64,000 nucleotides of DNA from a virus: the IMG/VR virus record IMGVR_UViG_3300007513_000007, positions 1 through 64,000 of that record; one strand, given 5' to 3'. Under the pieces are notes generated by a model. The model saw nothing but the letters and a program-made list of their open reading frames with translations, did not search any database and had not been told where the DNA came from. This document shows, one piece after another, positions 840 to 27,008 of the stretch. Every line of letters begins with the position of its first letter. Position 1 is the stretch's first letter. Both the position numbers and the translations under genes were made by a program.

Positions 840-929
840 AAAGGCGCGGGTGAAAGTGCTTCTTACGAGCGATGTAGGAAAGGTTGCGCCTGAAACCCTT
901 TACCCACGGAAAAAGGAAAGAGACCCCCC

Positions 930-1715: not shown

Positions 1716-1718
1716 CCT

Positions 1719-2174: not shown

Positions 2175-2222
2175 AAAGGAGCGGTAGGACCTACTACACC
2201 CCCCACAAACAAAGGAACCCCC

Positions 2223-5059: not shown

Positions 5060-5097
5060 ACAGCGTAGTACCCCCCAGAAAAGAAAAAGTACCCCCA

Positions 5098-5131
5098 GGG
5101 GGTTCCCCTCCGACGCCACCCCCGTAAGGAG
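5098..5131 (+). promoter_or_regulatory. class-A phage promoter
   Basis: GGGGGTTCC-16 nt-CGTAAGGAG, upstream of ATG 5175. Confidence 0.75.
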
Positions 5132-5174
5132 AACAAGAGAAAAACCCGCACTGCTTGCAGTCACGGAGGACCCC

Positions 5175-5600: not shown

Positions 5601-6391
5601 GCCTTCGCATCGAGCACGAAGAAGGGGAGCCTCGGTTCATCCAAGGCATCCCCAACCGCCCCCAAGAGGAACTGCGCCAACTGGTGTCAGACCTTCTCTC
5701 GGGGGCCGCTGTGTCCAGCGACCAAGTACCCCCCAACATGACGGGCATGGTGTTCCTGCCTGTTGCGATGGGAGCCTTCCAACCTCCAGAGGAACTGCGA
5801 AAGGCAGCGATGGGGTCTGCGGGGCCTCCAGAGAGGTTGGAGGAAGACCCCCCAAGGCCAGAGCACCCCGGATACCCCGAAGGTCCTGGGGACCCTCCAG
5901 AGAAGCCTATGCTGGATGTTGTGAACCCCCAACTCCTCAAGGATGTAGAGTGGGGAGAGGTGGATGATGAGGCGCTAATGGAAGCCCAGTCCCGCCTCAA
6001 AGAAGCGAACAACGCCCGCATAGAGGCATGGGACAAGGCGACCCGAGAATGGGACGAAGCCCAAGAAGCCAACGACCGAGAGCGCAGACGGATCGACACC
6101 GAGTACAGGGAAGCCCTGGCCTCATGGGAGGCGAGCCTGGACCCCCACAAAGAGAAGGTCGCAGAGCGCAAACGCCTTCACGATGAATGGGTGACGAAGC
6201 ATGACCGCATCTTTGGCCGATGGGGCGAAGAAATGGGCGCTCTTGTCGGTTGGGTGAAGGATGCCTTCCCCCGAGGAGTCAACGGATACCCGATGTTCTA
6301 TAGCGTCCAGGTCGTCAACAATGACGACTGGAAGCGAGTGCGGGCAGCCCTGGAACGAGAGCAAGAACGCCGCAAAGAGATCGAGGTTTAG
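5597..6391 (+). CDS. hypothetical Pro/Glu-rich coiled-coil protein
   Basis: GTG start overlaps the upstream TGA; C-terminal FPRGVNGYPMFYSV motif. Confidence 0.65.
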   Translation: MSLRIEHEEGEPRFIQGIPNRPQEELRQLVSDLLSGAAVSSDQVPPNMTGMVFLPVAMGAFQPPEELRKAAMGSAGPPERLEEDPPRPEHPGYPEGPGDPPEKPMLDVVNPQLLKDVEWGEVDDEALMEAQSRLKEANNARIEAWDKATREWDEAQEANDRERRRIDTEYREALASWEASLDPHKEKVAERKRLHDEWVTKHDRIFGRWGEEMGALVGWVKDAFPRGVNGYPMFYSVQVVNNDDWKRVRAALEREQERRKEIEV

Positions 6392-8424
6392 CTCTGAACA
6401 GCAGCTTCCATCGACAGCTTGTCGAAGTCGATCTCACAGGCCCCGCCCACACAAGCAAGCTCCCGAGCACCTTCCCCCATGTCCTCTTTTTCGTAGTCCA
6501 CCAGAAGGTCATAGTTGATGTCCGGGAAGTCGTAGACCCGACTCTCAAACTCTTCCTTGGTGATCTCCTCGTAAGGAGCAAGGTCATACTTGTGGTCGTC
6601 ATAAGGCAAGAAGCTCAACCCAGTGACAGCATCGAAGTTCTCAAAGAGCCACTCACCTACCTCGTCCCACTCGTGCTCACGGACGTACACCGTGGCTGAC
6701 TGGTTGTGGCCTCGAACCGAACACCAAGTATTCATGACATGGAGATAGCGCCGAAGCTGCATCAAAGCAGACTCGTGGCTCCGCACCATCGCCCCTTCAG
6801 GCGACTTGACCGGGAACTCCACAACCCAAGTAGGACACTCCGCATCAGGAGTGTCCTTGTACTGGTTATCCTTGAAAACAGGTGCGCCTGAATCACGAAC
6901 CAGATGGAAGAGCGGGTCGTTAGCCGAGATGCGAACCCGACGGATGTAGTAGGGCGCATACCGAGTGTGAAAGCCACTGGCGCAATCGACAAGCTGGCTG
7001 GAGTTCCCACTGGGCTTCCCACAAGTGATGGAAGCAGGCATGGGCATGTCAAACCACGCTGCCGCCACGGCGGCAGTCTCGCGAGCAACGGCATTGAAAT
7101 GCTTGAGGGCTTCCGGGTCGCAGGACAACTCGGGATTGTCACAATGCCCTGTGATGTCCACGCCCAACAGCCGGTCCTCTTCACAGTGCTGGGACCATGC
7201 AGGACGGAGGTAGGGGAAGTTCGTGAACGTGGCCTGAATCGCGCCAATCCAAGTAGCCGTCCGAATCTTTCGAGAGAAAGATTCAACGGTATCTCCAGGG
7301 CGCATGATGGCCGCACTCAAGTTGCAGAACTGGCCGCCGCCACCTTCGCCGGTCCAGGGGTCGGTGCTCTTGGCGTACCGAAGCAGGATTTCCCCACAGG
7401 GGTTCGAGCGGCAGTCCGAACGACGCTCTGACCGCTTGGCGACAGGAAACATGAAGAACCCCCGCTCACCCGACCCGCTGTTACGGAGAGCTTCCCACTC
7501 CTTCAGGAACTCCTCCTTTCCAGGCTTCTGCTTCCAGAAAGCAGAGAAGTTGGCCATGTACCGACAGGTAGGGAAATCCCCTTTGCTCCAGTCCTTGGCG
7601 TGTCGCATCTCTTCGTCGTCTGGGTCGCTGAAGCAGATCAACGCAGCACGTCGGACACCGCCAGCCATGACGATTTCTCCAACCATGCAGGCAATATCCG
7701 AGGCTTCCACAGAGGAGAGAGGACGGCCTGAAGCAGCATCCAAAGTTTCCTGGCAGAAATCCAAGAGACGACGAAGAGGATCCGGTCCTGAAGCACGGCC
7801 TCCCTTCGTCACCAGACGAGCACCGGCAGGCCGGATCTGGGAGTAGTCGAAATCAACCGTGTCGCCTTTCCACATCATCGTCAGACCATCAAAAACCGCA
7901 TTGGCCCAGCCCTGGGTGCTGTCTTCGATGGTGTACTGGGTCGTGTGTCCAGTGCGAGGGGAAACATCCGGGAGGTTATTCACGAACTCGCGCTCGACGC
8001 TGTAGCCCACGCCTGTGCCCATCATCAGAATGTAGAGAAGCTCGCTGAAAGAACGAAGCGAATCCAAAGGGATGAACGCACAGTTGTAGAACATGGTGTT
8101 GTCACGGGCTGCCGCTGGTCCTGCGGCCCACAAAGCACGCATAGAAGGAAGGGCATCAAACCGAAGGATGGAATCACGAATATCGTTCAACACCGGGGCA
8201 GGGATATTCCGGCAACTACGCAGAAACCCGACATATCGGTCTACGGCCTCCTCCAATGTCTCCCGACGGCCCTCCTCTTCCCGCCATCGCGGATACGTCC
8301 GAGTGAACACAAACTGGGAAAGCGCATTTGGGAACCCTTCGATTGGCTCTGCGGCTTCCGTCTCCGTCCCAACGGGAAAATGAGCAAGTGACAGTGGTTG
8401 GGAGGCGGTGACATCGGGGTTCAT
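6388..8424 (-). CDS. nrdJ: class II (adenosylcobalamin-dependent) ribonucleotide reductase
   Basis: FTRTYPRW...RRET, PSMRALW, YNCAF, catalytic NPCGEI, QFCNLS, TCGKPSGNSSQL, C-terminal redox pair ACVGGACEI. Confidence 0.93.
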   Translation of the reverse strand: MNPDVTASQPLSLAHFPVGTETEAAEPIEGFPNALSQFVFTRTYPRWREEEGRRETLEEAVDRYVGFLRSCRNIPAPVLNDIRDSILRFDALPSMRALWAAGPAAARDNTMFYNCAFIPLDSLRSFSELLYILMMGTGVGYSVEREFVNNLPDVSPRTGHTTQYTIEDSTQGWANAVFDGLTMMWKGDTVDFDYSQIRPAGARLVTKGGRASGPDPLRRLLDFCQETLDAASGRPLSSVEASDIACMVGEIVMAGGVRRAALICFSDPDDEEMRHAKDWSKGDFPTCRYMANFSAFWKQKPGKEEFLKEWEALRNSGSGERGFFMFPVAKRSERRSDCRSNPCGEILLRYAKSTDPWTGEGGGGQFCNLSAAIMRPGDTVESFSRKIRTATWIGAIQATFTNFPYLRPAWSQHCEEDRLLGVDITGHCDNPELSCDPEALKHFNAVARETAAVAAAWFDMPMPASITCGKPSGNSSQLVDCASGFHTRYAPYYIRRVRISANDPLFHLVRDSGAPVFKDNQYKDTPDAECPTWVVEFPVKSPEGAMVRSHESALMQLRRYLHVMNTWCSVRGHNQSATVYVREHEWDEVGEWLFENFDAVTGLSFLPYDDHKYDLAPYEEITKEEFESRVYDFPDINYDLLVDYEKEDMGEGARELACVGGACEIDFDKLSMEAAVQS

Positions 8425-8484
8425 TCGGCGGCTCCTTCAAGGGCATAGCGGTAAAAGGCGTATTGGTCTGGGGCTATTGAAATC

Positions 8485-9489
8485 CTACCGGGATTGGGCA
8501 CGGTGACAGCCCTCTGCGAGAACGGAAACCAAAGCTACCCACGGGGCAGGGGAGCCGCGCAAAACGGCTGCCTCCACCCTTGCAAGCCCATGCACAAGCA
8601 ACCGAAGATTTGCTGTACCCCATCTTCTCGCAGCCGGAATCACGTCCCTTTCGACGGCCCAACGAGGGGTTCCCAAACGCTCTGCTATTTCCTGCGGATC
8701 TTTCGTGTTTTCAAGAAGATAACTGGCAGCCAACCACTCCATCGCGAGGTGCCCTGGACCTCCCCTTGCCCGAAGTAAAAGCATGAGAGGGTCCCCCGAG
8801 ATCGAACCTTTTATTTGATAGAGGGCTTTTACAGTTTGTGTGGCTTGGGCAGCACCCAGTGCTTTTGCGAGGGGTTGGAGGTCCATCTCTGCGGATTTCC
8901 GTACCGTGCCTCGAAGGTGCTCCACACTAATCTCGGAATCCCCTCGGGCCTTGGCCAAGGCCGAAGCCTTCAAGACCTCTTGAGAGATCATCCCCAAATC
9001 AGTCCCCACCGCGCCCACAAGCCCTGTTGCCAGTTTGGTCCCCAGCGTGCTTCCTGGAAGGAGCCTCTGGGCTTCGTAAGAGGCGAAGCGGATTGCAAGA
9101 GCCTTGCGATCCTTGCGTGAACCCGGTCGCTCAAAGGGAAGGTGGACGAGCTTGGGGTGGGAAAGCGAGGGAGCCTTCTTTTTGAGGTCCCCTTCATGCA
9201 GAAGCAGAAGCGTAGACTCCACGCCTGAAGCAACATGATCCTCGACCACTCCAGGGTCCAACTTGGCTCCGTGGCGAACCACCACCAAAAGGGACTCCCC
9301 AAAAGTCAGGGCGCACGAAAGAGCGTCTTCCACTTCAGGAGTCGGGTGAGAATCCTCAACCCGGACGATGCGTCGGCCTGCTTTGGCTGCTTCACGACAA
9401 GCCACCTGAAGTTCGCGGTTCCAGAGAAAGGCTTCAGAACCAGAGATGGAGACAAGCGGGGGAGGGGCACTCCAGGACCAGGACATCAA
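8485..9489 (-). CDS. holA: DNA polymerase III delta (HolA)-like clamp-loader subunit
   Basis: ISGSEAFLWNR N-terminus, GTDLGMISQEVLK (compare DL..L.QELEK), helical C-terminal collar. Confidence 0.6.
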   Translation of the reverse strand: MMSWSWSAPPPLVSISGSEAFLWNRELQVACREAAKAGRRIVRVEDSHPTPEVEDALSCALTFGESLLVVVRHGAKLDPGVVEDHVASGVESTLLLLHEGDLKKKAPSLSHPKLVHLPFERPGSRKDRKALAIRFASYEAQRLLPGSTLGTKLATGLVGAVGTDLGMISQEVLKASALAKARGDSEISVEHLRGTVRKSAEMDLQPLAKALGAAQATQTVKALYQIKGSISGDPLMLLLRARGGPGHLAMEWLAASYLLENTKDPQEIAERLGTPRWAVERDVIPAARRWGTANLRLLVHGLARVEAAVLRGSPAPWVALVSVLAEGCHRAQSR

Positions 9490-10091
9490 ACACCCCCTAC
9501 GAGGGCGTCAGCCGCACGCAAGGGGCTTACGGGTGTGTGTTGCAGGGCCTCACGGATGCGTACCCACAAGACCGATGCTGCGGGATCCTCGGCTTCCTCT
9601 TCCAGATGGAAAAGAATGCCGTTCAACAAATCCGTTTCTGTTCCCTTGTGTTTCCGAAGGACTCCCAGGACACCGCCGAAATCTTGCTTCTTCAAGGCAG
9701 CCCACAGATCGGAGACTCCCGCCATGTCCTCCCACCGGACTACGGGGGGTCCCGGACACCAGACAGCGTGGACTCTGGAGATGATCGTGGGAATCACCGA
9801 GTTCCGATGGTGTGCCCAAAGCAATATCTGAAGGGAGGCGGTGGTTGATTCCTCCAGAGTTTTCAGGAGGGCGTCAGCCGCTTCCGGGGTTGCTTCGTCC
9901 ACAGGACCCACCACCAGAAAGGGCTTCTTGTCTCCCACCCCTGCATGGGATGCCAGTTCCACAATGGTCCTGGAATCATCAACCTTCAATCCCCCATCTC
10001 CGATGACATCGGAGATGAGGCGACCTTCAGCCTCGGCAGTCTGTAGAGCGGTGTCCCGTGCTACGGGGCCAAAAAACAGACGAGCCGCCAT
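9486..10091 (-). CDS. holB: DNA polymerase III delta-prime (HolB)-like subunit
   Basis: LVVGPVDEATPEAADALLKTLEE and NSVIPTIISRV motifs; ATG 10091 overlaps the upstream TGA. Confidence 0.65.
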   Translation of the reverse strand: MAARLFFGPVARDTALQTAEAEGRLISDVIGDGGLKVDDSRTIVELASHAGVGDKKPFLVVGPVDEATPEAADALLKTLEESTTASLQILLWAHHRNSVIPTIISRVHAVWCPGPPVVRWEDMAGVSDLWAALKKQDFGGVLGVLRKHKGTETDLLNGILFHLEEEAEDPAASVLWVRIREALQHTPVSPLRAADALVGGV

Positions 10092-10297
10092 CAGACAGAG
10101 ACAACGAAACGGCCCTTGCAGGTTTCGCAAGAGTAGTGAATGGCAGTGCCCCCTGCGGGGAGCTTGAACTTCATAGCGATCTTTGAAGTCTTGCCTTCAC
10201 ACCCTGCTTTCGCCCGACAGGAGACCCACACAACCTTGCCCTCGTCTTTGTCGGGCTTGCGTGGAGTGGGGCGAGGTCTTTTCGGCTTCTGACTCAT
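10091..10297 (-). CDS. small zinc-ribbon protein
   Basis: C-x5-C ... CETC; translationally coupled to the holB-like gene. Confidence 0.6.
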   Translation of the reverse strand: MSQKPKRPRPTPRKPDKDEGKVVWVSCRAKAGCEGKTSKIAMKFKLPAGGTAIHYSCETCKGRFVVSV

Positions 10298-10372
10298 ACT
10301 TCACCAGTACCCAACGGAGAGGGATCCTGACCCCCTGGACAGACACGTTCAAGGGAAAAGTGTCAAGCGGCT

Positions 10373-10906
10373 TCAGGGGTATCCGGCTGCTTGGGCGTAC
10401 TCAACAAGCAGCTTCCCGACCATCTCAATGAACTGACTCCTGTCCGGGTAGAGATTGCCAACGGCCTCTCCCTGATAAAAGGCTGTCGTCCCAACAGTCG
10501 TCCCTGCTTCCAGCGCGGTCCCGGCAGAAGTCTCGGCAACAGATCCCCCGCCAGGAGCGTAGGCTGTGCTTGGCAAAACAACTGACGAGCCAGAAGAAGG
10601 AAGGGTTCCTGACCACCGCAAAAGCCGGTTATCGGACATCATGGGCACAACAACGGATTCCCACTGTTGCCCGCTAATCCAAAGGTTCCGAGGAACGAGA
10701 GCGCGGACCTCTTGAGAGACTTCCTCAACAAGACGGAATCCAACCTTGCGTGAAGGGTGTGCCCGAGTTGATGAAGGGTAAACCACCCGGAGCTTGCCCA
10801 TAAGGACGAGCCACAACGGACCTTTCAGACACTTGGAAAGTTCAGTGGCGGTACGGACAGGGACTCGACTACCGCCCCTGGAGCCACGAAAGATAGTTCG
10901 ACTCAT
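10373..10906 (-). CDS. hypothetical protein
   Basis: 177-aa ORF co-oriented with the replication operon. Confidence 0.55.
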   Translation of the reverse strand: MSRTIFRGSRGGSRVPVRTATELSKCLKGPLWLVLMGKLRVVYPSSTRAHPSRKVGFRLVEEVSQEVRALVPRNLWISGQQWESVVVPMMSDNRLLRWSGTLPSSGSSVVLPSTAYAPGGGSVAETSAGTALEAGTTVGTTAFYQGEAVGNLYPDRSQFIEMVGKLLVEYAQAAGYP

Positions 10907-11350
10907 CCGATCCTCCTACGAGTAGGAGGAGATAAGGACTTGATTGATTGTCTCTGTTGTTGTCTGGGTTCTATCTCTCTCTACTACCTTCTTCTTATCT
11001 CTCGCTACGCTCGTTCTATTTCAGTCGAACCTACGGTTCTCCTTACTTCTCTATCCTTTCTAATCCTTCCTTATGTCTGTGGAAGGCAGGACAGATTGTA
11101 AGGGGGTTCGAGGAATCCCACTCTCTAAACGGCTCTCTTCTATGAAGGCCGAGGTAAAGGCTGATTCCGAGGCTCCGCTCTTGCGAGGGGGGAGCAACCC
11201 TTGAAGTTCCCTATTTCTTATCTCCTGTGAGGTTGATCCAAACGGCGGGGTTCCTTACCGCCCTGGTTTCCCAGGTCCCGGCAATCCTCGAATCAACAAG
11301 CTCACAGTCAGACAACTGGCCACGCTGTTCAAGGATCCCAAGACACTCTT

Positions 11351-11755
11351 ATGAGGTCTGGACGTGGGTACTCTATAGGCAGCGGAGAGGTCATGCAAGG
11401 AATCCCCCAAAATCCAGGTCGCTATGAAGTATGGATTGCCAAGGAGGACGGCGATTGTGCGCGTCCTTTAGAGAAGACCGGATCTTTTGTTGACCTTGGT
11501 GAAGCTCTCTTGTGGGCGGGGCGAGTGCTCCGTGGCTTGGGTGGCTCTTCCCTCCAAGCTCAAAACAGCCGTCTTGTCGGTGAGGGGTACGCCTGCAACA
11601 GCATCGTTGTAAGGGACCCGGATGCAGCCACAACCTTCTGCACGGCCATCTCCAATGCGTCCCTCACAGAGAATGACGGGACCACCTCTTCCTCTACGCC
11701 GTCCCAGACCGTCCCAATGTGGGAGCCTGATGACCCGGACATTCCGGTGGCCTAA
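11351..11755 (+). CDS. hypothetical protein
   Basis: 134-aa ORF convergent on the sigma-like gene. Confidence 0.45.
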   Translation: MRSGRGYSIGSGEVMQGIPQNPGRYEVWIAKEDGDCARPLEKTGSFVDLGEALLWAGRVLRGLGGSSLQAQNSRLVGEGYACNSIVVRDPDAATTFCTAISNASLTENDGTTSSSTPSQTVPMWEPDDPDIPVA

Positions 11756-12924
11756 AAGAGTACGAGAGTCTCTCCTTGGGCACGGCCTGCGTCTGTTGCC
11801 AAGTAGCTGTCACCCTTATGGATGGTGAGAAGACCTCGACCTCCAAGCAGCCGGATTGCCCGGTTGAAGTGGGCGGGAGGATATTCCAGATCACCCTGAA
11901 TCTCGTTCTTGGTGGAGAAGGGTTCCTCGATGACATACTCCAGGATCGTCTTCGCCATCTTCAGCGTGATTGACGATTCCCGAAGGTCCGACCGAACACG
12001 GGCGGTCAGGTGGCCTGCACGCAGGACGGTGATCCCCTCGCTGTCTGCAATCTCTTGCCGAGAAGCCCCGCCACACATGAGGTCGAACACCCGAAGCAGC
12101 CGCTCATGGGATTGGGGACGAGCAGCACGGAGGCAGTCTCTTGCGAGGTCCAGAAACTCCGCATCAAACTCACTCTCTTCGTCTGCATCATCCATAATGT
12201 CGAACTGCCCTTGAAGAGCCTTCCCGTTGTCATCGGTGGCGTAGACAACCGAGAACGAAGTCACGTCCATCGCATCGTCCGCGATCTTCCCTTCGTTGTG
12301 GTACTCCCGGTCTGTCCGTGATCCGCGCATCTCCCGAAGCAGTGCATCCTGACCGCGACGGCGAAGCTGGTTGATGATCTTGCGGCCAATCCAGTCAGCG
12401 AGATTGGAGAGGCTGGGCTGGTATCCGCGTCGAAGGTGGGCATCGAAGGAGCCTTCAGCGCCCCACTGCCCGATAGCAATATGGACAGCGCCCACAATGT
12501 CTTCCCTGGTTTCCAGAGGGAAGCGGGCACGGAGCTTGTAGGAGAGGCGATTGACCAGCCCGCTTTCGAGCCGCTGGTTCAGCCATTCCCGAGTAGTCAC
12601 GTTGCCTTGGAGGGTGAGGGCCACGGCCTCCTGCTCCTCCCGCTTGACGCGAGCGATGAGGTCCCTCATGTCACCCTGAATAGCCTTATAGAGTTCAGCA
12701 GCGAACTCCTCCACGGCATGACGACCACGGTAGCCGTGACCGTAAACAACATCACGGTTGAACAGCTTCCGGCCACAGCCTTGGGAATCACCAAGGGAGG
12801 CAAAGGCTTCGCGAACCAAGGAGTCGCAGGTTTCGGGGGAGTCAGGGTTCTGGAGGCGAACGGCGTCAATCACTTCGATGAGACGCGCAGTTCGTGCTCG
12901 CAACACGGGCTTGGCTTGGGGCAT
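11752..12924 (-). CDS. sigma70/ECF-like sigma factor with an extra C-terminal winged helix
   Basis: Region-2-like ETREDIVGAVHIAI...LADWIGRKIINQLRRR; region-4 HTH RLLRVFDLMCGGASRQEIADSEGITVLRAGHLTARVR; start trimmed to MPQAK. Confidence 0.65.
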   Translation of the reverse strand: MPQAKPVLRARTARLIEVIDAVRLQNPDSPETCDSLVREAFASLGDSQGCGRKLFNRDVVYGHGYRGRHAVEEFAAELYKAIQGDMRDLIARVKREEQEAVALTLQGNVTTREWLNQRLESGLVNRLSYKLRARFPLETREDIVGAVHIAIGQWGAEGSFDAHLRRGYQPSLSNLADWIGRKIINQLRRRGQDALLREMRGSRTDREYHNEGKIADDAMDVTSFSVVYATDDNGKALQGQFDIMDDADEESEFDAEFLDLARDCLRAARPQSHERLLRVFDLMCGGASRQEIADSEGITVLRAGHLTARVRSDLRESSITLKMAKTILEYVIEEPFSTKNEIQGDLEYPPAHFNRAIRLLGGRGLLTIHKGDSYLATDAGRAQGETLVLF

Positions 12925-13118
12925 CGGGTTCCTCGTCTTGACCTGGGACAGCAAGCTGCTTGAGGTCTGGGTAGGGTTAGGGTGTTGCGACGGGTGACGA
13001 TGCTCTTGCCGAGCGGGTCTGGGAAGCAACGATCTGATCGTAACACGAAATCGCGTGTGTGCGAGCCAAGAGTGGCGTTTTTTCTTTGTCTATCGTCACG
13101 GTCCATATGAAACGTGGG

Positions 13119-15404
13119 ATGGCGAGCCAGAATCCCGTGGAGGTAGATATGACACGCATCATGGCGAAAGCAAGAAATCTCATGGAGTCGCTCGCAGAGG
13201 AAGATCCTCTGCGGGGCAAGCTGGCATCTTTGCTCAAAGAGGCTGGCATCCGGGACGACCTTTTCGCCCGTGCTTCAGTTCTGGAAGGGGCGCTTGGCCT
13301 CCCCGCAAACTCCTTGGCCCGCACCCCTTCCAGGGATCTTGTGGATATTCAGCGGAACTTCCCTGACATCAACGAGCAGTTCTTCGACCTTCGCCGCGAC
13401 TACGATCTCTACGGAGCGGTGATCGGAGGGGCCAGCCAGATCCGAGGAACCGAGTTCACCCCTGATGAGATTGCCCAGTCGTTGATTGCAGGGCTTACCA
13501 TCAAGAACCTGGATCGGGTGAAGGGTGGAAGCATCTACCGCCGACTGGGTGAGAAGCTCAAGAACCAAATCAAGTCAGGCCGCGTAGATATGAAGGGCCT
13601 TGCGGGCACTCTCCGCAGATGGGCTGCCACCCGAGCGATGGATGTCATCGACCGACGGCCACAAGACAGCCTCGATGAAATGTCTGATGGCGACAACGCG
13701 ACCCTTATCGACCGTTTTTACAGTGACCCTGGAACCTCCGAAACAGCACTGGCTGTCTCTTTGGTGAATGATCCCCGCCTACTTCGAGAGATCGACCGTG
13801 CGGTGCGGGGGCAGATCGGGAACGCTGAAGCACAGGTTGCTGTATGGGAGGCCATCCTGGCCAATCCCGGACTCCTGGATGTCAAACGGAATGGCGTAGG
13901 CGTAGACCAGCAGGGCCTTGCTGATGTTCTCTCCGAGGGTGGAAGGTCCGTGTCCAGGCAGAACGCCGGAAGGAAGTTCCGGGAGAAGGTTCTCCCGGCG
14001 ATGCAGAATGCCCTCGCGAATGACGAGAGGCTCCAGCAGACCCTGATGCGGGACCGAGAAATCCAAGAGGTCTTCCAGGACGCCATGCGGCTCGCTGCCG
14101 GATACGCCCGCAAGTCCATGCGCGGGGGAGACTACGGAGGGGCTGCGAGTAGCAAGCAGTTGGTGAAGGACATGATCGCCAACATGCGACGGGTGAAGAC
14201 CCCGGCTGAACGAAGCCATGCCGTTGAGCAGGTGCAACACGCGGAAGCCGCGAGGTCCATCACCCCCCAACAGGCCAAAGAGGTCATGTCAGCCATCAAT
14301 AAGGCTACATCGGCCCGCACAGCAGAATGGAAAGGCTGGACCGAGGACATGCCTGTTCAGGTAGTGACGATGAAGGGCACCGAGGTGTTCCCGAATCTCG
14401 CCGCTGCCCAGAAGAAGTACCGCGACCTGGACCCCCGCCGTAACGGGCGCAAGTTCACCTGGGCCATGAAGGATCGTGTCAAAGGCCGCCCTGCAATCCG
14501 CTTTGAGGCATGGGACGTGAACAGAATGATGTCTATGTCTGCTTCCTCGAAGAGCGGGAGGGCGATGGCTGGGCCTTGGTACGGAATGGTGTGGGGGGGT
14601 GATTATGGGAATGACCTTGTACGTTTCTTCCTTGGGAGGAACAAGGGGGCCGTTAGCCGCTGGTTCAGAGGGGTTGGGGATCACGGGCCGGATTCAAAGT
14701 TCGAGTCGGGGGCCATCTTTGACTACGGCTTCAACAGTTCGTATTCGCTCACCCGCAATGGAGTGACCCTGAAGGGGAAGGACTTTCAGGCTGCGAACGC
14801 GGCCATTCGCTTGCACGACGAATGGAAGAAAGCTCTGCATGACTTCCAAGCACAGGGGGCTACTACAAGGTCAGAGGATAAGGAGTTCACGGAAGACTAT
14901 GCAAAGAACCTGCGGCTTGCCCGTAAGGTTGCTGTGCGGTTCCTTCGCGACAGGACGGCGTGCGGTCCCGGATGCTCGTGTGGTGGAAACTGCACAGGCC
15001 AGTGCCAGTCTCACCGAGCTTCCGAGCAGGAAGCCGAAAAGCTGGAAGCAGAAGCACAGGCCAACCGTGATCAGGCCGAGGCCGATGAGGCGAAAGCAGA
15101 AGCGGCCCAGATGAAAGAGGCTGGGTTCGAGAGCCATTTCAAGAAGGGCGAGTACCTCTACGATTTCTTCTCGGAGAAGCGTCTGCCCTATCGAGTTTTC
15201 GAGAAAGAGGATCGGAACGGGGTCACCCATTTCATCCCCAATGAGGTTGTCATCGAAACGATTGCGCTGACACGCGGTGGCGAGCGACGGTCAATCGAGG
15301 ACACGATTCGGAAGATTGATTTCAAGAACGGGGATGTAAACCACTTCCTCGACCATCTGGCGGGAGCGATTGCCGACCAGTACAGCGGTGCTTTGAGCTT
15401 CTAA
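13119..15404 (+). CDS. multi-domain virion-tagged protein with an N-terminal sigma-factor-like domain
   Basis: LRRWAATRAMDVIDRR (region 2.3-2.4-like), SLDEMSDGDNATLIDRF (region 3.2-like), QQGLADVL..SVSRQNAGRKF (region 4-like); later RTA and ARKVAVRFLRDRTA tags; first gene of the terminase operon. Confidence 0.5.
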   Translation: MASQNPVEVDMTRIMAKARNLMESLAEEDPLRGKLASLLKEAGIRDDLFARASVLEGALGLPANSLARTPSRDLVDIQRNFPDINEQFFDLRRDYDLYGAVIGGASQIRGTEFTPDEIAQSLIAGLTIKNLDRVKGGSIYRRLGEKLKNQIKSGRVDMKGLAGTLRRWAATRAMDVIDRRPQDSLDEMSDGDNATLIDRFYSDPGTSETALAVSLVNDPRLLREIDRAVRGQIGNAEAQVAVWEAILANPGLLDVKRNGVGVDQQGLADVLSEGGRSVSRQNAGRKFREKVLPAMQNALANDERLQQTLMRDREIQEVFQDAMRLAAGYARKSMRGGDYGGAASSKQLVKDMIANMRRVKTPAERSHAVEQVQHAEAARSITPQQAKEVMSAINKATSARTAEWKGWTEDMPVQVVTMKGTEVFPNLAAAQKKYRDLDPRRNGRKFTWAMKDRVKGRPAIRFEAWDVNRMMSMSASSKSGRAMAGPWYGMVWGGDYGNDLVRFFLGRNKGAVSRWFRGVGDHGPDSKFESGAIFDYGFNSSYSLTRNGVTLKGKDFQAANAAIRLHDEWKKALHDFQAQGATTRSEDKEFTEDYAKNLRLARKVAVRFLRDRTACGPGCSCGGNCTGQCQSHRASEQEAEKLEAEAQANRDQAEADEAKAEAAQMKEAGFESHFKKGEYLYDFFSEKRLPYRVFEKEDRNGVTHFIPNEVVIETIALTRGGERRSIEDTIRKIDFKNGDVNHFLDHLAGAIADQYSGALSF

Positions 15405-15415
15405 AGGAGAACAAC

Positions 15416-16021
15416 ATGGGTCGTAAACTCGTCACTGGGCAAAGGCCCTTCACTATGCTGACCCCCGGACTCACTGGAGGCAGTGACCCCTCGCGGGGCG
15501 TTGGTGGCAACCCTGTCAAAATCCGAGAGAGCTATCAGATCCAGATGTTCCCCGAAGTCGCAGGGCGTGGGAATGATCGAAACGACCTCAACCCCAGCAC
15601 CCCCGGACTCACTACACGGCAAGGAAACGCTACGTTCACCACAGCCGACACCCAGGTGGCCTGCACGGCCACCTTCACGGTGGCAACCGCCGCATGGCCG
15701 GAAGCAGCCTCGTGGGTTCAGCTTGGGGAGTACAGGCTCGTTACGGGGGCTGACTTCCTTGTGGTAAATACTGACGTCAACACGACTGCCACAAACCTCG
15801 CCACGGCAATCAACAACCTTCCTGGGTTCTTGTGCGCTGGCCCCGCCGCTGCCACCATCACGGTTACGGGTCCCACCGGCCCAGCAGGCAACGACATCGT
15901 GCTCAAAGCAGGCGGCTTCAACGCGAACTGGTTGGAGGACGGCGCTGCTGGCTCTGGGGTCAACCTCAACACCACCTTCACTTCTGGGGAGCCATACATC
16001 GGGCCGCCGAGTATTAGTTGA
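15416..16021 (+). CDS. probable virion structural protein
   Basis: Thr/Ala/Gly-rich beta-type sequence (TATNLATAINNLPG...TITVTG) in the packaging operon. Confidence 0.55.
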   Translation: MGRKLVTGQRPFTMLTPGLTGGSDPSRGVGGNPVKIRESYQIQMFPEVAGRGNDRNDLNPSTPGLTTRQGNATFTTADTQVACTATFTVATAAWPEAASWVQLGEYRLVTGADFLVVNTDVNTTATNLATAINNLPGFLCAGPAAATITVTGPTGPAGNDIVLKAGGFNANWLEDGAAGSGVNLNTTFTSGEPYIGPPSIS

Positions 16022-16036
16022 TAAACAGGAGAGCCT

Positions 16037-16720
16037 ATGTCGGCAGCCCCGAAGAACCAGACCCGAGAAGACAAAGAGACGATTATCGCGGGCCTCCCGC
16101 CCGGAACACGAAGAGTCCAAGTCAAGAGTGCAGGAGGCAAGACCTCCTATAAGCGGCCCGAAGACGTCAACCTTGACACCGATGAAATCCTGCTTGCGGG
16201 CGATGGTCGAGCCATCGTGATGCGTGGAAAGCCTGGGCGCAAGACCACCAAGCTCTCCCCGGTTTCCAACAACGTCGAAGAGGTGATGGAAGCCCGAGCG
16301 GAACATATCAAGACAGACAACCTGTTGAGCACTACGCTCACCGGGGCCGAGAGCGAAGCCGTCATGGACTCGCTCCTTGCAGCGTTGGCCGAGGAAGCCG
16401 CGTCTATTGCTTTCGAGAAGGCTGAAGCAGAGAGGCACGGACACGACACCTCGTCGCTTTCAGCCAAGCGTGCCCGAATCCTCAAGATGACGGCTGATAC
16501 TTGGTTGAAGCGCCGGGACAAGAACATCGCTGGATCAATCGACCTGGATTCGCCTGCCTTCGAGACTTTGTTCGCCTTCATCCTGGAAACTGTCCGGGAG
16601 TCCATGACAGACGCGGGGCTGCGTGCCGAGCATATCGAAACGGTGTTTGCCAAGATCGGTAAGCGCCTCCAGGACAACTGGAAGGAAGAAGCGAAGGCAC
16701 GGTTGAAGGAGAAGTCGTGA
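16037..16720 (+). CDS. possible terminase small subunit
   Basis: Helical 227-aa protein whose stop overlaps the terL start; assigned by position only. Confidence 0.4.
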   Translation: MSAAPKNQTREDKETIIAGLPPGTRRVQVKSAGGKTSYKRPEDVNLDTDEILLAGDGRAIVMRGKPGRKTTKLSPVSNNVEEVMEARAEHIKTDNLLSTTLTGAESEAVMDSLLAALAEEAASIAFEKAEAERHGHDTSSLSAKRARILKMTADTWLKRRDKNIAGSIDLDSPAFETLFAFILETVRESMTDAGLRAEHIETVFAKIGKRLQDNWKEEAKARLKEKS

Positions 16721-18627
16721 GTCTTGCCGACCTCGCCATCAACATCGGAAGGCGGGATGCAGATGATGATTCCGAAATCGTAGACATCATCACGTTCATC
16801 GAGGCTCCGTGGGGCCTCAACATGAAGCTGTTCCCCGTCCAGAAGGTCATCCTAAAGGTCCACTACGGGCTGCCTTTGGACGAGAATGCCTTTGGCTTCC
16901 CTCTGGACACCCCTATTCCAGAAGACCACCCGGCCTATGACCCTCTCTTGGTGGATAACGATGGCTACTACACCCATCGTGTTCCAATCACAGACTGGCG
17001 CAGAGAAAACCCCCAGGCTTTCACTGAAGCCGGATACTTGAAGTACCTGTACGAGAACAAACGCTCCAATGTCGAAGTCCTTGTTCCGGGGCATGAGCGT
17101 CGTGAGATGATCTTGAGCATCGGTCGCCGTTCAGGAAAGACCACCATCTCGGCGTGCATCGCTGCCTACGAAACATACAAACTCATCAGCAAGGGGCACC
17201 CACAAGGGTTCTACGGGCTACCTGACTCCAACGTGATTCAGATCATCTCGGTGGCCACGGACAAAGACCAAGCTGGCCTGCTTTACCGTGAGTGTCATGG
17301 TCACTTCGTGAACTGCGATTTCTTCGCGTCCTACATGGCCAATGCGACCCAGAGCTTCGCTACGTTCCAGACTCCCAACGACATCGAGAAGTTTGGGCAC
17401 TACACAGACAATCCTCGGAGCCGGTTCTCCATCAAGGTCACCTTCCGCTCATGCGTAGCAAAGGGTCTGCGTGGTGCCGGTAACATCGTGGTGATTCTGG
17501 ACGAGGTGGCTCACTTCACGGATAAGGGCCAATCGGGAGCCGAAGAAGTCTACAACGCGGTCACCCCCTCTACGTCAGCCTTCTCCAAGAAGGACCCTGA
17601 TGATTCAAGGAAGCCCATCGGCCCGGTCGAAGGCCGGATCATCCTCATCTCCTCTCCTCTGGGACGCCAGGGACAGTTCTACAAGCTGTTCGGGATTGGA
17701 ATGCGCGGCGGCAAGGCAGCGGAGAACATGCTGTGCATCGAGGCACCGACCTGGGAAGTGAACCCCACGGTTCCCGCAACCGAGTTCGAGAAGCACTACG
17801 TCAAAGACCCCCGTGTGTTCTTTACCGAGTATGGAGGAGAGTTCTCTGACCGGACCAGGGGTTGGATTGAGGATCGCCAAGACCTCGTAGCCTGCGTCAA
17901 GCCCACCCTGCGGCCCAAGGTTCAAGCACCGCCTCGCGCTCCCCACTTTATGGGCGTCGATGTCGCCCTCGTAGGGGACTACTCTGCCCTGGCTATCGGC
18001 CATAACGACGCCGAAGGCAACATTGTGCTCGACTACATAGAGCGCATCTGTGCCGGGGAAGGGGACTTCGTAGGCCAGGACCGCCTTGAGTTCGATGACG
18101 TTGCTGACTGGATCGAGAAGTTGGCCAAACGGTTCTACATCACCGAAGGGATTTTCGACCAGTGGGCAGGCATCCCGATGGAGCAGGCCCTCCGAAAGCG
18201 AGGCTTGGGCCAACTCAAATCAGTCCACCACACACGCATGTTGTCGAGCCAGATGTTCCAGAACTTCAAGGACCAGATGCTTGACCAGCGCCTTGTGCTT
18301 TATGATTGGCCCGTCCCCGACGGAGAAGACCACTGCGCCTACATCCAAGAACTCTTGGAGCTTCAAGCCGAGGTCGTCAGTAAATACATCATTCGCGTGG
18401 AAGCCCCGCAAGTCGAAGGAAAGCACGACGACCTCTCTGACGCCTTGATGCGGATGGTGTGGTGTGCGACCCAGAACGCGAACAAGCAGCACACGGTCAT
18501 AGGCCACCGGAGAGGGGTCCCCCAATACGCAGGGAACAGCGGAAGGTTTGGACGCGCCCCAAACCACGGACGGCGAAAGACCCACAGTTCTCGGACGATC
18601 CCTTTGAAGAAGGGTCGGGGACGGTAG
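16717..18627 (+). CDS. terL: terminase large subunit
   Basis: Walker A IGRRSGKTT, Walker B VILDEVAHF, LISSP motif, nuclease GVDVALVGD ... HDDLSDALM. Confidence 0.92.
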   Translation: MSLADLAINIGRRDADDDSEIVDIITFIEAPWGLNMKLFPVQKVILKVHYGLPLDENAFGFPLDTPIPEDHPAYDPLLVDNDGYYTHRVPITDWRRENPQAFTEAGYLKYLYENKRSNVEVLVPGHERREMILSIGRRSGKTTISACIAAYETYKLISKGHPQGFYGLPDSNVIQIISVATDKDQAGLLYRECHGHFVNCDFFASYMANATQSFATFQTPNDIEKFGHYTDNPRSRFSIKVTFRSCVAKGLRGAGNIVVILDEVAHFTDKGQSGAEEVYNAVTPSTSAFSKKDPDDSRKPIGPVEGRIILISSPLGRQGQFYKLFGIGMRGGKAAENMLCIEAPTWEVNPTVPATEFEKHYVKDPRVFFTEYGGEFSDRTRGWIEDRQDLVACVKPTLRPKVQAPPRAPHFMGVDVALVGDYSALAIGHNDAEGNIVLDYIERICAGEGDFVGQDRLEFDDVADWIEKLAKRFYITEGIFDQWAGIPMEQALRKRGLGQLKSVHHTRMLSSQMFQNFKDQMLDQRLVLYDWPVPDGEDHCAYIQELLELQAEVVSKYIIRVEAPQVEGKHDDLSDALMRMVWCATQNANKQHTVIGHRRGVPQYAGNSGRFGRAPNHGRRKTHSSRTIPLKKGRGR

Positions 18628-19012
18628 TGGTTCCGTAAGTTCTGGGGGATGAGGGAGAGATTCAGGCTCCCTGAATCAGATTGCGGAGGTGCTGAATCAA
18701 CCCATCTCCGCACCTGAAGCAGTTTCGTTCTCTCCAGGAGCATGAAAAACAGGAAAGACGCGCCCTCTGAATCAGACCCATTCGCAAGGTTGAAAGCCGC
18801 TTATAAAGAAACTTGAAAAAAGTTTGGGTTTTAGTGTCCGGGAAGGGAGGTTGACCGCGTCTCGCGTGCGAGCGCGAGCGCGAGGCCGTTGTTGCTTTTC
18901 GGCCACCGCCCCGGTTCCCGCCAAGCAAAGCAACCGTTCTGCTACTCCTTTACAAAGGGTTGGGTCTCCTACGGTAGCGTCCCTATCATTCGACCCCCGA
19001 TAGGAGCACTCG

Positions 19013-19579
19013 GTGGCTATTCAGAACTCTAACATTGATGATGCCCTCGACGTGGAACTCATGTTCCCCGGCGACAGGTTCCCTGTGACCGTGGGGCCTG
19101 TCCTCCGTACAAACGGGTGGAGGGGCGGCTTGTTTGTCATGTATGCGGCAGGCAACGATGATTTTATTGTAGAGGTCAGTGACGGCACCGCAGCGGCAGG
19201 GTTCCTGTTGTTCCAGTCCGAGGACTATGCTTTGGCCCCTCCTTGGGGAACTGGTCCCGGCTCCCCCGAAAACTGGATCGCCCAACAGCCGCGATCCGGT
19301 GTGGGGGGCCAAAACGTGATGACAATGGTAAACGGGGGTACACGGGCCTACTTCAGAGTGTATGAGACCGTAGCCCTGGCAGGGGGCACACGAACCGGAG
19401 GGGCTATCACCTACAATCTCAACGACACCTTGAAGGTGAGCGAGAATGGCTTGCTCTGTAACGATTCGGATGCCCAGTTTGCATTGGCAGGCATCGCCTC
19501 ACCTATCGTTGTAGGTATCGTGTCGGCAGCCCCGTCAGCCATCAACAGCAACCGGCTGTGCATCGACATGAAGTATTGA
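19013..19579 (+). CDS. probable head decoration/cement protein
   Basis: GTG start with GGAG RBS; YNLNDTLKVSENGLL...VVGIVSAAP...LCIDM pattern typical of capsid decoration proteins; upstream of portal. Confidence 0.5.
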   Translation: MAIQNSNIDDALDVELMFPGDRFPVTVGPVLRTNGWRGGLFVMYAAGNDDFIVEVSDGTAAAGFLLFQSEDYALAPPWGTGPGSPENWIAQQPRSGVGGQNVMTMVNGGTRAYFRVYETVALAGGTRTGGAITYNLNDTLKVSENGLLCNDSDAQFALAGIASPIVVGIVSAAPSAINSNRLCIDMKY

Positions 19580-19586
19580 GGTTTCT

Positions 19587-19901
19587 TTGAGTAGATACCG
19601 TGCCAGAACCGCTCCTTCAGAGGCAGATCGCGACATCACGCGCCATCTGGACGAAGCAGCACGCCATGTTGGACTTGCCTTGGACACCATGAGGCAGCAT
19701 AAAACTGCCCGGTCGCGTGGCCGTAAGAGGCGCGTGGAGGAAGACCTTATGCGCGTGCTGGGTGCCATCAGCAACGTCGGTAGCCTGGAGCCTCGTTACG
19801 GCGGCGTGGACGATCCTGACCTCATGTCTGAAGATGCGAGAGCCGCCAAACAGCGAGCGGAGCGGGATGCCCGACGGGCAGCCGAAAGAGGTGACGGATG
19901 A
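19587..19901 (+). CDS. hypothetical protein
   Basis: 104 aa, coupled to the portal gene. Confidence 0.6.
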   Translation: MSRYRARTAPSEADRDITRHLDEAARHVGLALDTMRQHKTARSRGRKRRVEEDLMRVLGAISNVGSLEPRYGGVDDPDLMSEDARAAKQRAERDARRAAERGDG

Positions 19902-21607
19902 CCAAGAAGGGTGATCAGCCTCCTACCGTGGGAGCCGTCTCCAATGGCGACGGGAAGAAGAAGGCCAAGTCAGGCAAGCCTCGCAAGGTCACCACCGGGT
20001 CCATGCGTATGCGTACTGCATCCATCACCACAGGTTTGGGCCACGCTGGCACGATAGAAGGCGTAGGGGGAAACTTCTACAGCCCAGAGCTTTCTACGGA
20101 CTTCCTGGAGCTTCCCCAGTCTCTCCACGAACAGTGGAACTACTACCGTTTCTTCTATCGTTCCGAGCCTTTCGTGGGTCAGGCCATTGACCTGCACACC
20201 GAACTCCCCCTCTCCAAGATTCGGATTGCCACCCCTGAAGCAAAGAACCGAGACATGGCGGTTGCCGCTACTCGATTCTGTGAGAGGTGGGCCACGCAGA
20301 TTGGATTGCTTCACCGCCTCATCGCCATCGTTCACGAGAGGAACCTCATTGGCGAGGTTTTCATCTGGTGCGAAGACGACAACCCGGAAATGCCGGATGA
20401 CATCCGAAAGGAACTGCATCGGGAACTCACCGAAGACGGTGAAGTGGTTGAGGAAGAACGTGAACGCGAGGACGCCGCTGAACGGGCGGTTGCTTGGCTT
20501 CAGAAGAACTACAAGGGCTGGACCTCGATTCGGGTACTTCCCCCCGAACAAGTTCAAATGCAGTCCTTCAACTTCACGGATGAGCGAATCTTCGAGTTGA
20601 TTCCAGACTCAAAGACCAAGGACATCATCGAGAAATCCCAGCAAGGCGATGAAAACGCCATTCGCATTGTGAAGTCCATGCCTCCAGACGTGGTGTTTGC
20701 AGTGGCCGAGGGGAGCAACATCCCCCTCAACACCGATCCTGACGCGGGGAGCTTCATCTACTACCTCGCCAACCGCAAATCAGACTACGATTTGCGCGGT
20801 CGCTCCATCCTGGAACGGTGTATGCGAGCACTGGTTTACCGGGACAAGTTGCGCCAAGCGCAAACAAGCATCGCCTCCCGTCATATGACGCCCATCCGCA
20901 TCGTTAGCGGGGAGGACTTGGACATTTCTGACGTGGAAGCCTTGCGCGAGCAGGTAGACATGGCACTCCAAGACCCCGACTACTCCATCATCGCGAACTT
21001 CGAGGTTCGCTGGGAAGAGATGGGCGCGGACCAGCGGCTTCTTGATTTGGGGACCGAGTACGACCTTACTGACCGTCAGCTTTATTCAGGGCTGGGGGTC
21101 ACCGAGGGCTTGCTGTCAGGAGAGTCCCAGTACAGCGGTGACCGAATCAATCTCGAAGTGATCAACACCCGCTACATGCTCTTGCGAGAGCAGGTCCAAG
21201 AACTCGTCCAGAACCATATCTTCAAGCCAATGTGTGCCCGCATGGGGTTTGTGGAGGAGGACGAGTTTGGAGATGAGCGCGTTATCGTTCCGGGCCTTTC
21301 GTTCACAAGGCTCGCGCTTCGCGACAACCGGGACACCTTCGATGCTCTGTACAACCTCTACCAGAAGGGCAGCCTGGACGTGGACACCATCCTCGAACTG
21401 CTCAACCTGGACCCTGTGGATGTACGGAGGAAGATCCAGCGTGACCTCTTCACGGTCAACGACCCGACCTTCAATGAGGCGATGCGCGGAATCTACGGCG
21501 ACGTGGGACGCGCCTTGGCCGAAAACTCGGATGCTGCCGAACTCATCGCCAAGAACATCGGGCTGGAGTACAGCAAGCCCGCAGAAGATGACGGCGGCAG
21601 GTACTGA
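19898..21607 (+). CDS. portal protein
   Basis: YRFFYRSEPFVGQAIDLHTELPLSK, RGRSILERCMRALVYRDKLRQAQ; 569 aa, near terL. Confidence 0.85.
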   Translation: MTKKGDQPPTVGAVSNGDGKKKAKSGKPRKVTTGSMRMRTASITTGLGHAGTIEGVGGNFYSPELSTDFLELPQSLHEQWNYYRFFYRSEPFVGQAIDLHTELPLSKIRIATPEAKNRDMAVAATRFCERWATQIGLLHRLIAIVHERNLIGEVFIWCEDDNPEMPDDIRKELHRELTEDGEVVEEEREREDAAERAVAWLQKNYKGWTSIRVLPPEQVQMQSFNFTDERIFELIPDSKTKDIIEKSQQGDENAIRIVKSMPPDVVFAVAEGSNIPLNTDPDAGSFIYYLANRKSDYDLRGRSILERCMRALVYRDKLRQAQTSIASRHMTPIRIVSGEDLDISDVEALREQVDMALQDPDYSIIANFEVRWEEMGADQRLLDLGTEYDLTDRQLYSGLGVTEGLLSGESQYSGDRINLEVINTRYMLLREQVQELVQNHIFKPMCARMGFVEEDEFGDERVIVPGLSFTRLALRDNRDTFDALYNLYQKGSLDVDTILELLNLDPVDVRRKIQRDLFTVNDPTFNEAMRGIYGDVGRALAENSDAAELIAKNIGLEYSKPAEDDGGRY

Positions 21608-21658: not shown

Positions 21659-22891
21659 ATGTCAGACCGTAAAGCCATGACCTACCGCCATTCGTGAGGT
21701 GAGGGTGAGAAGCGGTCGCTTCCCCACCAACATCCCCATCCCCCAGATATTGACGAGTGGAACCCCGTCCTCGAAGAGGACGCCATCGAAGACGTGGACC
21801 TCCACGCACGGGCTACGCAAGATAAACAGGCGTTTCTGGACGCGACACCTATGCAGGTAGAGGTTGCCCGAAAGCATCTCTCCCAGGTGCTTGCTGTCCT
21901 GCGTGCCCAGTACCTCTCCTACCAGACCAGCCATTGGCAGGTGATTAGTGGCAACTTCTACGGCAACCACCTGCTGTTCGAGAGGCTCTACAAGAGCGTG
22001 CAGGAACAGGTAGACCAGTTGGCAGAGAAGATGGTCGGCTATTTCGGCACGGAAGCGGTAGACCTCGCCCCCTCCATGAAGAGGATGCTGGGCTGTGTGC
22101 TTCGGTGGAACGCTTACTCGTGCCACCACAAACGAGGGATTGCTTCCGAGGCTGAACTCCAGGAAACCGTCCAGGGTGCCTATGATGCAATCACTGCATC
22201 AGGAGTGATGACCCTGGGGTTGGACGACTGGCTGATGGCTACCGCCAATCAGCACGAAGAGAACACCTACCTGCTTCAGCAGGCAGTGACTCCCCTCCCC
22301 CATGAGAAGCAAGCGGCCAGACCACCACAGGTGAGGATCCCCCGAAGCCGGAAGGATTTGATTGGCTTCTACTACGCACTGCATGACGCACTGGAGAAAG
22401 ACATCAACTTCGGTGTCGAAGACCTCCAGGCCATGAGCAACTCCGTCCTTCGCCGTGAAGTCACTCGACTCGCGCAAGGGTTGGAAGACACCCCTGGAGG
22501 AGATGAGGCTGCGGAACGTGCTTTGAAGAACGCCCCTGCGGCTTACAGGATGCTGACCCGAATGACTGGGGTCGATAAACTCGCGACGGAGCCTGCGAAG
22601 GCAGTCGCCCCTACCGCTGAAGGACACTTCTTCGACAACCCTTCACACAGGGAAGTCCAGGAGTTCGCGGACTCGGATGCCATCTCGAACATCAAAGAAG
22701 TCACTGAAGAGGCGGCCCCAGAACTGGACATCCCTGAATCAGAGGCCCTCAAAGAAACAGCGGAAGCACCCCCGACCCCCGTGGAAATCGCGGAGGAGCC
22801 GGGAGGCAAGGAACTCTCTACGCTGAATCGTCTTGAGGTGAAAGGCCACGACGCGAGGATGGCAGCGTGGGAGGCCCAGCTTCGTCGGTAG
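21659..22891 (+). CDS. Dps/ferritin-like domain protein with an acidic C-terminal extension (in-frame TGA at 21695-21697)
   Basis: QTSHWQV..GNFYGNHLLFERLY..QEQVDQLAEK ferroxidase-like signature. ATG 21659 is in frame but interrupted by TGA; the ORF track starts at GTG 21794. Confidence 0.7.
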
Positions 22892-27007: not shown

Positions 27008-27008
27008 G

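Follow-up and report, generated by a model that had tools for sequence, protein, structure and literature searches.

Huge phages that lack an RNA polymerase of their own must reprogram the host enzyme, and, to our knowledge, such reprogramming is understood only in T4-like models. How might a phage of this kind do so? The question was raised by one gene (plus strand, ending at position 15,404) of IMG/VR record IMGVR_UViG_3300007513_000007, a 180,576-bp sequence from an uncultured huge phage, of which the first 64,000 nucleotides (nt) form the stretch analyzed here (the window). The CheckV completeness of the record is approximately 40%, which corresponds to a phage genome of approximately 0.45 Mb. 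The original prediction, made from the nucleotide sequence, regarded the product as a sigma factor that is synthesized late, packaged as part of a tagged polyprotein, and injected to act on early promoters of the phage. The verdict best supported by our analysis is a sigma-like or helix-turn-helix (HTH) transcription regulator that bears short peptide tags, is partnered with an extracytoplasmic function (ECF)-like sigma factor, and has acquired four accessory modules.

Homologues were sought exhaustively with HMMER among 1.84 billion representatives; 439 hits were obtained, and the block counts used below refer to the 150 hits listed. When mapped on the query, whose residues are counted from nt 13,119 (761-residue reading), the hits formed discrete blocks at residues 10–325, 325–400, 400–475, 475–605, and 670–760. 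Each of the five blocks has a separate set of homologues, many of which are stand-alone proteins, so that independently occurring domains, the hallmark used for polyvalent-type proteins, were found here. The first block, designated the N-module, may be the ancestral part; its approximately 315 residues would comprise an all-helical domain, an acidic disordered linker, and an HTH domain of the sigma4/LuxR type. Its relatives are proteins of 305–560 residues that carry the N-module at their N-terminus. They constitute a new family of approximately 36 clusters at 50% identity, all metagenomic, with a sigma-like layout and a location beside an ECF-like sigma gene. Neither the family nor its tags were found described in the literature.

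The structure of the N-module was predicted with AlphaFold using a 33-sequence alignment, which gave a predicted local distance difference test (pLDDT) score of 82.8; a single-sequence AF2 run on the whole protein (pLDDT 37) was useless. In the model, a helical domain extending to residue 178 is followed by a disordered acidic linker (181–206) and a second domain (207–325). In the Foldseek comparison with the PDB, the top rows were sigma-A chains, but with no better than E = 0.4–1, and nothing appeared at E ≤ 0.001. Four sigma chains were aligned with both domains in order, and HTH domains of the LuxR type and of Fur matched as well as those of sigma factors. The HTH fold was seen at modest Z, and no meaningful match was obtained when the fold was searched in BFVD and ESM-Atlas. 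The model thereby lends moderate support to a sigma4/LuxR-type HTH located behind a flexible linker, and the sigma2 identity of its helical domain is unproven. On this basis the N-module may be a DNA-binding transcription factor of sigma-like architecture.

The three peptides that had been quoted as sigma70 landmarks are indeed present in the N-module in the described order (residues 160–179, 184–203, and 263–290; approximately nt 13,596–13,988). Their value as landmarks was not confirmed, as the similarity could not be distinguished from chance and no sigma family matched. A search for RpoE homologues gave near-identical RpoE orthologues only, which are unsuited as a diverse profile, and an ECF alignment of 29 sequences was hence prepared from genome loci of E. 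coli and five other genomes. The N-module family was aligned with it by hhalign at P = 0.03 (probability 1.7%), collinearly over regions 2.1–2.4 and region 4. The score of 21.4 was above all 40 column-shuffled controls, and 10 of the 40 controls shuffled in 12-column blocks equaled or exceeded it. The score is therefore attributed to a small number of similar local motifs rather than to ordered homology. Such strings resemble ECF regions 2.2 (EDIAQ) and 2.4 (L..A..RA.DV.R) in the correct order, and a local motif also resembles region 2.2 of a sigma factor of the phage itself. As positive controls, the open reading frame (ORF) at 79,552–80,472 and the family of the neighboring sigma were detected against the same ECF alignment at P = 1.7e-6 and P = 1.3e-4, respectively. 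No sigma match was obtained for the protein in Pfam and NCBIfam even at E ≤ 10, for any of 33 N-module family members scanned, or for the family profile against PDB sequences. Six-frame searches with PF04542 and TIGR02937 matched a different gene and gave nothing on the target gene, and a word search with the family alignment (A4) retrieved 6 known hits only, with no names. The nearest named clusters in a protein-language-model atlas were HTH_7 (0.91) and viral Sigma70_r2 (0.90), which are leads only. Paralogy of the N-module with the neighboring sigma was rejected by comparison. A sigma factor was thus not detectable by sequence, and we regard a true sigma function of the N-module, packaged or not, as doubtful.

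A second sigma-like gene had been placed divergently from the target gene, and this arrangement was confirmed. The encoded protein extends beyond its sigma core by approximately 120 residues at the N-terminus and, at the C-terminus, by a winged-helix-like tail of approximately 70 residues. Its annotated TTG start at 13,029 is probably too early, and the Met codon at 12,924 suits the homologues. The head-to-head pairing is kept in loci L005, L006–L009, L162–L163, and L164, which represent at least four diverged lineages; it spans 26–64% identity, and the N-module of paired relatives is down to 28–37% identical. The N-module stands alone as a protein of 350–386 residues in L006 and L162, where it is followed by genes for a RecD2-like helicase and RecA and preceded by ribonucleotide reductase and a clamp-loader-like gene. 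These neighbors belong to replication rather than to packaging. What is conserved is the partnership with the sigma, and the terminase link is local. The N-module would be expected to act with, or on, the divergent ECF-like sigma, thereby controlling one class of phage promoters on the host RNA polymerase.

The four small modules B, C, D, and E, which follow the N-module, were found alone or in other fusions among hundreds of metagenomic proteins. Module C opens with a tag-like (K/R)(T/V)AEWKGW and closes with MSMSAS; it occurs at varied positions in long proteins or alone with approximately 90 residues. Module E is contained in approximately 72 of the 150 listed hits, many of which are again stand-alone proteins of approximately 90 residues, and it is also located elsewhere in long proteins. 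It provided the only protein match in the phage database, gp35 of FtMidnight, whose gene adjoins primase in a replication region. Its profile matched nothing in the PDB and Pfam, and the protein-language-model atlas gave no usable match for it. Residues 551–593 of module D exhibited a weak similarity to TIGR01558 (small terminase; E = 0.07), far short of the cut-off. The Cys-rich knuckle (C..C.C...C...C) that directly follows a tag is possibly a small element that binds metal or forms disulfides; a similar knuckle, ACGGDCPCAPCQ, stands after a tag-like stretch at the C-terminus of P0110, a distant homologue of the N-module.

The nearest relative, P0002 (65% identity), is without modules B and E. 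Its ...AMRLA runs straight into RTAEWKGW, and a tag of another type (tag II, IRLASENPELR..LLPLL) follows its module D at its residues 520–548. Because of the block-wise homology and these differences, the C-terminal 430 residues are read as a recent, fast-changing accretion and the N-module as the conserved unit. No paralogue of any module was found within the record. A Pfam search of the protein and nine long module-sharing relatives detected no polyvalent-associated enzymatic or head-anchoring domain and gave only DUF7717, Mg_chelatase, and OAS1_C. The module-sharing proteins of other contigs are encoded amid helicase, RNA ligase, release-factor, and homing-endonuclease genes. In locus L166, a stand-alone gene for ArdC-N plus MPTase-PolyVal, the polyvalent-protein metallopeptidase, was observed at 165–1181, which is 3.7 kb upstream of a 923-residue module-C protein.

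The RLAA, RTA, and ARKVAVRFL motifs, said in the original prediction to break up the protein, sit on the module junctions that were mapped independently by homology, the RTA motif being the start of module C. They were further said to be common to a cargo family; ARKVAVRFLRDRTA as an exact string occurs only once in the record, and the RVAxxF core is the part of it that is common to others. The junction motifs fit the pattern [AST]x[RKQ][VIL]Axx[FYWH], designated tag III, which was found 14 times in 161 long ORFs of the record as compared with 2.8 in shuffles (shuffle maximum 7). Among the 150 homologues, a strict form of tag III was found 18 times (0.7 expected) and tag II, (I/L)(R/K)LA...PELR..LLPLL, 13 times (0 expected). 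The codons vary between tag copies, which rules out DNA repeats or recombination scars and therefore indicates selection on the peptide. Tag III follows the N-module in 15 of 27 N-module homologues, where it often lies 4–11 residues from the C-terminus or is followed by one domain of approximately 80 residues. The tag is hence taken, from these alignments, as a normal attribute of the N-module family, around which modules were inserted in the present protein. Here and in the closest relative, the usual C-terminal tag of the family would have been displaced downstream, modules B, C, D, and E having accreted between and after the tag copies. The tags mark seams at which this lineage gains and loses small modules, and they most likely serve as docking peptides that draw numerous unrelated proteins to a single shared partner.

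Many of the tagged ORFs of the record are clustered at 23–35 kb, directly past the portal gene, which is compatible with head cargo but is no proof of it. The T4-type capsid-targeting sequence is N-terminal and removed by a protease; the tags examined here are internal, and those of relatives are mostly C-terminal. Two further helical tags were observed, each with zero occurrences in shuffles. LIR(L/M)AS.LP.G...RR.ILSGL is carried by three ORFs (26,940–27,470, 34,642–35,070, and 47,869–48,483) and IKLA...PELR..LLP(L/I)LK by two adjacent ones (31,517–32,350 and 32,355–32,732). Metagenomic homologues carry both of them as well, flanking modules C and E.

The late-type upstream motif ascribed to the gene was verified, as L005 retains TTTTTTCTTTGTCTATCGT amid flanks that differ. 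Its core, GTCTAT, occurs at 36 sites, 7 of which precede an ORF by no more than 80 nt (3.6% expected), an approximately 5-fold enrichment. Neither a class-A nor a sigma70-type promoter was found upstream of the target gene. The class-A motif is bipartite, GGGGGTTCC-N16-CCGTAGAG followed by a ribosome-binding site, and is present in approximately 46 copies in the record. Those in the window include copies at 39,808, 40,320, 41,726, 43,191, 43,919, 47,777, and 59,727 on the plus strand and at 2222, 28,242, 37,853, 39,154, 39,526, 39,720, 51,682, and 54,787 on the minus strand. A bipartite layout and a −10 element containing CGT are typical of ECF sigmas. The description of class A as non-sigma70 was hence abandoned, since these bipartite promoters with a CGTA −10 element are of the ECF style, that is, of group 4 of the sigma70 family. 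The simplest reading is that class A is served, after synthesis in the cell, by one or the other of the clear ECF-like sigmas. Sigma70-type promoters were scarce at window positions 1–20,000 (1 versus 4.5 expected in shuffles), as evaluated for promoters of the E. coli type. At least two promoter-like motif classes are thus present in the record, namely class A and the single-element GTCTAT.

The ORF itself is genuine, giving 761 or 751 residues when started at 13,119 or 13,149, within a frame that is uninterrupted from 13,059 to 15,404. ATG 13,149 is probably the real start, with a product of 751 residues, because GGAGGT stands 5 nt upstream and the nearest homologues begin there (P0002, P0003, and P0004 start at query residue 11–12); ATG 13,119 remains a possible start codon. 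No Pfam or PHROG family was obtained for any part of the product except module E (phrog_6004). A single-protein search of viral and bacterial genome collections for related loci found no relative, and the DNA of the record had no match in a megablast of the phage database. The features of the locus are collected in Table 1.

Table 1. Features of the target gene and its surroundings in the window.
Feature	Position	Strand	Evidence or remark
Divergent partner, ECF-like sigma with an extra C-terminal winged-helix-like tail	11752..12924	-	TIGR02937 E = 1e-3 (short of the cut-off); five-member family A3 versus ECF, hhalign P = 1.3e-4, probability 54%
Upstream region of the target gene			includes TGTCTATCGT
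Conserved upstream block TTTTTTCTTTGTCTATCGT, late-type core GTCTAT	13078..13096	+	kept in L005, flanks diverge
Shine-Dalgarno GGAGGT (13139-13144) and likely start ATG 13149	13139..13151	+	sequence; starts of homologues
N-module, residues 11-325, conserved family of ~330 residues	13149..14093	+	~36 of 150 listed hits cover only the N-module
Helical sub-domain, residues 97-180, weakly like sigma region 2; motifs PDEIAQSL and RRWAATRAMDVIDRR	13407..13658	+	
Acidic disordered linker, residues 181-206, conserved SLD...L.D	13659..13736	+	pLDDT <50; pattern family-wide
HTH domain, residues 207-311, sigma4/LuxR type, beta-hairpin insertion	13737..14051	+	
Tag III copy a (AMRLAAGY), residues 322-329, directly after the N-module	14082..14105	+	pattern match
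Module B, residues 330-395	14106..14303	+	~10 of 150 listed hits match only B, e.g., P0008, P0011, P0030
Module C, residues 396-476	14304..14546	+	~35 of 150 listed hits
Module D, residues 477-600	14547..14918	+	3 of 150 listed hits (P0002, P0003, P0053 only)
Tag III copy b (ARKVAVRF), residues 601-608	14919..14942	+	pattern match
Cys-rich knuckle CGPGCSCGGNCTGQCQSH	14961..15014	+	sequence
Glu/Ala/Lys-rich helical spacer, residues 633-668	15015..15122	+	one long helix in the whole-protein model, pLDDT 63-65
Module E, residues 669-761, and stop codon	15123..15404	+	phrog_6004, PHROG E = 1.3e-8
201-residue ORF (15416-16021), 227-residue ORF at the TerS position (16037-16720), TerL (16717-18627)	15416..18627	+	TerL resembles phrog_2, E = 3.7e-30

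As had been predicted, the gene heads a string of terminase genes, in which all genes up to TerL are on the same strand with gaps of at most 15 nt and the order is kept in L005; co-transcription with the terminase genes is plausible. A 347-residue ORF on the minus strand (15,401–16,444) overlaps both plus-strand ORFs that separate the target gene from TerL, and it is probably spurious because the overlapped pair is conserved in L005. The portal gene (19,898–21,607, plus strand) was recognized by PHROGs. Directly past it, the product of 21,794–22,891 (plus strand) contains an N-terminal DNA-binding domain (phrog_3636, E = 2.5e-9), and this was the only one matched when nine head-region or tagged ORFs were searched against PHROGs.

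Outside the window, the ORF at 79,552–80,472 (plus strand, 306 residues; loci L002, L003, and L161) encodes the clearest sigma of the record. Its hhalign probability against ECF was 90% as a single sequence, and its TIGR02937 match (E = 8.6e-5) was short of the cut-off. It is divergent from a tagged ORF (78,491–79,336, minus strand, 281 residues) that bears a copy of tag III at each end (AQRVAQRY and ATQVAAAY) and is preceded by TGTCTAT. The hydrophobic C-terminal half of that product is probably membrane-spanning, and the protein is a candidate anti-sigma-like factor. Its paralogy with the N-module was rejected (P = 0.08). Four giant ORFs of 3872, 1989, 1940, and 1610 residues were also observed on the minus strand (156,946–168,564, 116,490–122,459, 128,787–134,609, and 171,512–176,344, respectively), the largest of which contains one tag-like match. 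They were considered as virion RNA polymerases and rejected, having no Pfam or PHROG match and no clear catalytic motif.

How should this evidence be weighed? We give a probability of roughly 45% to the explanation as a whole, namely a mosaic fusion in which a DNA-binding N-module acts with a sigma partner and carries docking tags. The same structural evidence would also suit a true but extremely diverged sigma that is not packaged and serves one promoter class, e.g., the single-element GTCTAT, in the manner of T4 gp55. The neighboring sigma and the one at 79.5 kb would then serve the other classes, of which at least two promoter-like ones are present. The ordered local motifs resembling ECF regions 2.2 and 2.4, as well as region 2.2 of the phage's own sigma, and the conserved residues in the disordered linker, which recall sigma region 3.2, point in this direction, and on the whole we consider it unlikely. 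The originally predicted scheme adds several steps to such a sigma: late synthesis, loading into the capsid by the tag, cleavage by a head protease, and injection, so that class A fires before phage translation. It draws on the sigma-like two-domain model, the leading place among the terminase genes together with a conserved upstream motif other than class A, the conservation of the tag in the N-module family, the many tag-bearing ORFs past the portal, and the scarcity of canonical sigma70-type promoters. However, the sigma homology is non-significant, two clearer ECF-like sigmas could serve class A as ordinary early or middle products, and the gene heads a RecD2/RecA cluster in more distant relatives. 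Tags at the extreme C-terminus also suit docking better than polyprotein cleavage, and no known family of prohead protease (Peptidase_S77 or S78) was found in the 180-kb fragment, which represents only approximately 40% of the genome. Packaging and injection are hence judged very improbable.

Other functions can be drawn from the gene neighborhood. The N-module might regulate the neighboring ECF-like sigma, as an anti-sigma-like protein or a co-factor, rather than read DNA as a sigma. Such a role is consistent with the divergent pairing conserved across lineages and with the 79.5-kb sigma, which is likewise divergent from a tag-bearing protein, one with hydrophobic helices. The two tagged partners are, however, non-homologous, classical anti-sigmas are co-transcribed with their sigma rather than divergent from it, and the N-module possesses its own HTH, which together leave this role a small chance. 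Comparably small is the chance that the protein has no part in transcription and acts instead as an accessory of packaging or of the head or as an ejection protein; its HTH would then contact phage DNA or have no target. The gene does head the terminase string here and in L005, a weak small-terminase similarity exists, and the one assigned family, phrog_6004, is of unknown function. That similarity, however, resides in the rare module D, and N-modules of approximately 30–37% identity are encoded away from packaging genes. The mosaic fusion with a sigma partner and docking tags is thus preferred. If the tags are not a cargo code, the family still offers a tractable new transcription regulator with clear tag-bounded module shuffling. 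If they are a cargo-loading code, it would provide the first candidate for a sigma-like factor that is injected. Such an injected adaptor would allow a polymerase-less huge phage to switch the host RNA polymerase to ECF-type promoters before any phage translation, and the same tag code would load varied small effector modules.

Among known systems, the virion RNA polymerases of N4, crAss-like, and phiKZ-like phages have been shown in virions (PMC7598289). They share with the injected adaptor the concept of transcription machinery that is delivered for non-host promoters at time zero; they differ in being polymerases instead of sigma-like adaptors. The capsid-targeting sequence of T4, carried by IPI-III and Alt, occurs strictly at the N-terminus, and a protease cuts it off at a defined site. 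Like this sequence and the cargo-loading peptides of encapsulins, our tags are short peptides on unrelated proteins that are proposed to send them to one place. Unlike the T4 internal proteins (PMC3012670), the tagged proteins bear them N-terminally, C-terminally, or internally, with no defined cleavage site and with no S77/S78 protease in the fragment. Polyvalent proteins are long domain chains proposed to enter the host with the DNA (Iyer et al. 2017, PMC5512222, cited in PMC7824862). They resemble the present protein in consisting of chained domains whose members occur alone or recombined, with rapid module turnover, and the stand-alone ArdC/MPTase-PolyVal gene near the module-C protein of L166 is a further likeness. 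The difference is that no known polyvalent or head-anchoring domain was detected here; the modules are small, none was enzymatic in the tests applied, and short conserved tags stand between them.

Closer comparisons are offered by sigma factors and their derivatives. The N-module differs from ECF (group 4) sigmas such as E. coli RpoE in showing no significant profile similarity. It also possesses approximately 95 extra N-terminal residues, an insertion in the sigma2-like part, and a hairpin in the HTH domain, and it is extended by a C-terminal tag and by four additional modules. It is like them in its helical domain, flexible acidic linker, and C-terminal four-helix HTH, in its strings resembling regions 2.2 and 2.4, and in its gene adjoining a sigma gene in a genome rich in ECF-style promoters. 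T4 gp55 and gp33 are sigma-derived proteins, so diverged that sequence methods barely detect them; they act on a single-element late promoter, and a short C-terminal peptide docks each to the sliding clamp. No homology to them was detected here. T4 divides two sigma functions over two small proteins, of which gp33 is discussed in PMC7824862, and the present tag is also borne by many non-transcription proteins. Nevertheless, both cases may share one plan, in which a diverged sigma-like phage protein is combined with a short docking peptide, for which the tag is the candidate here.

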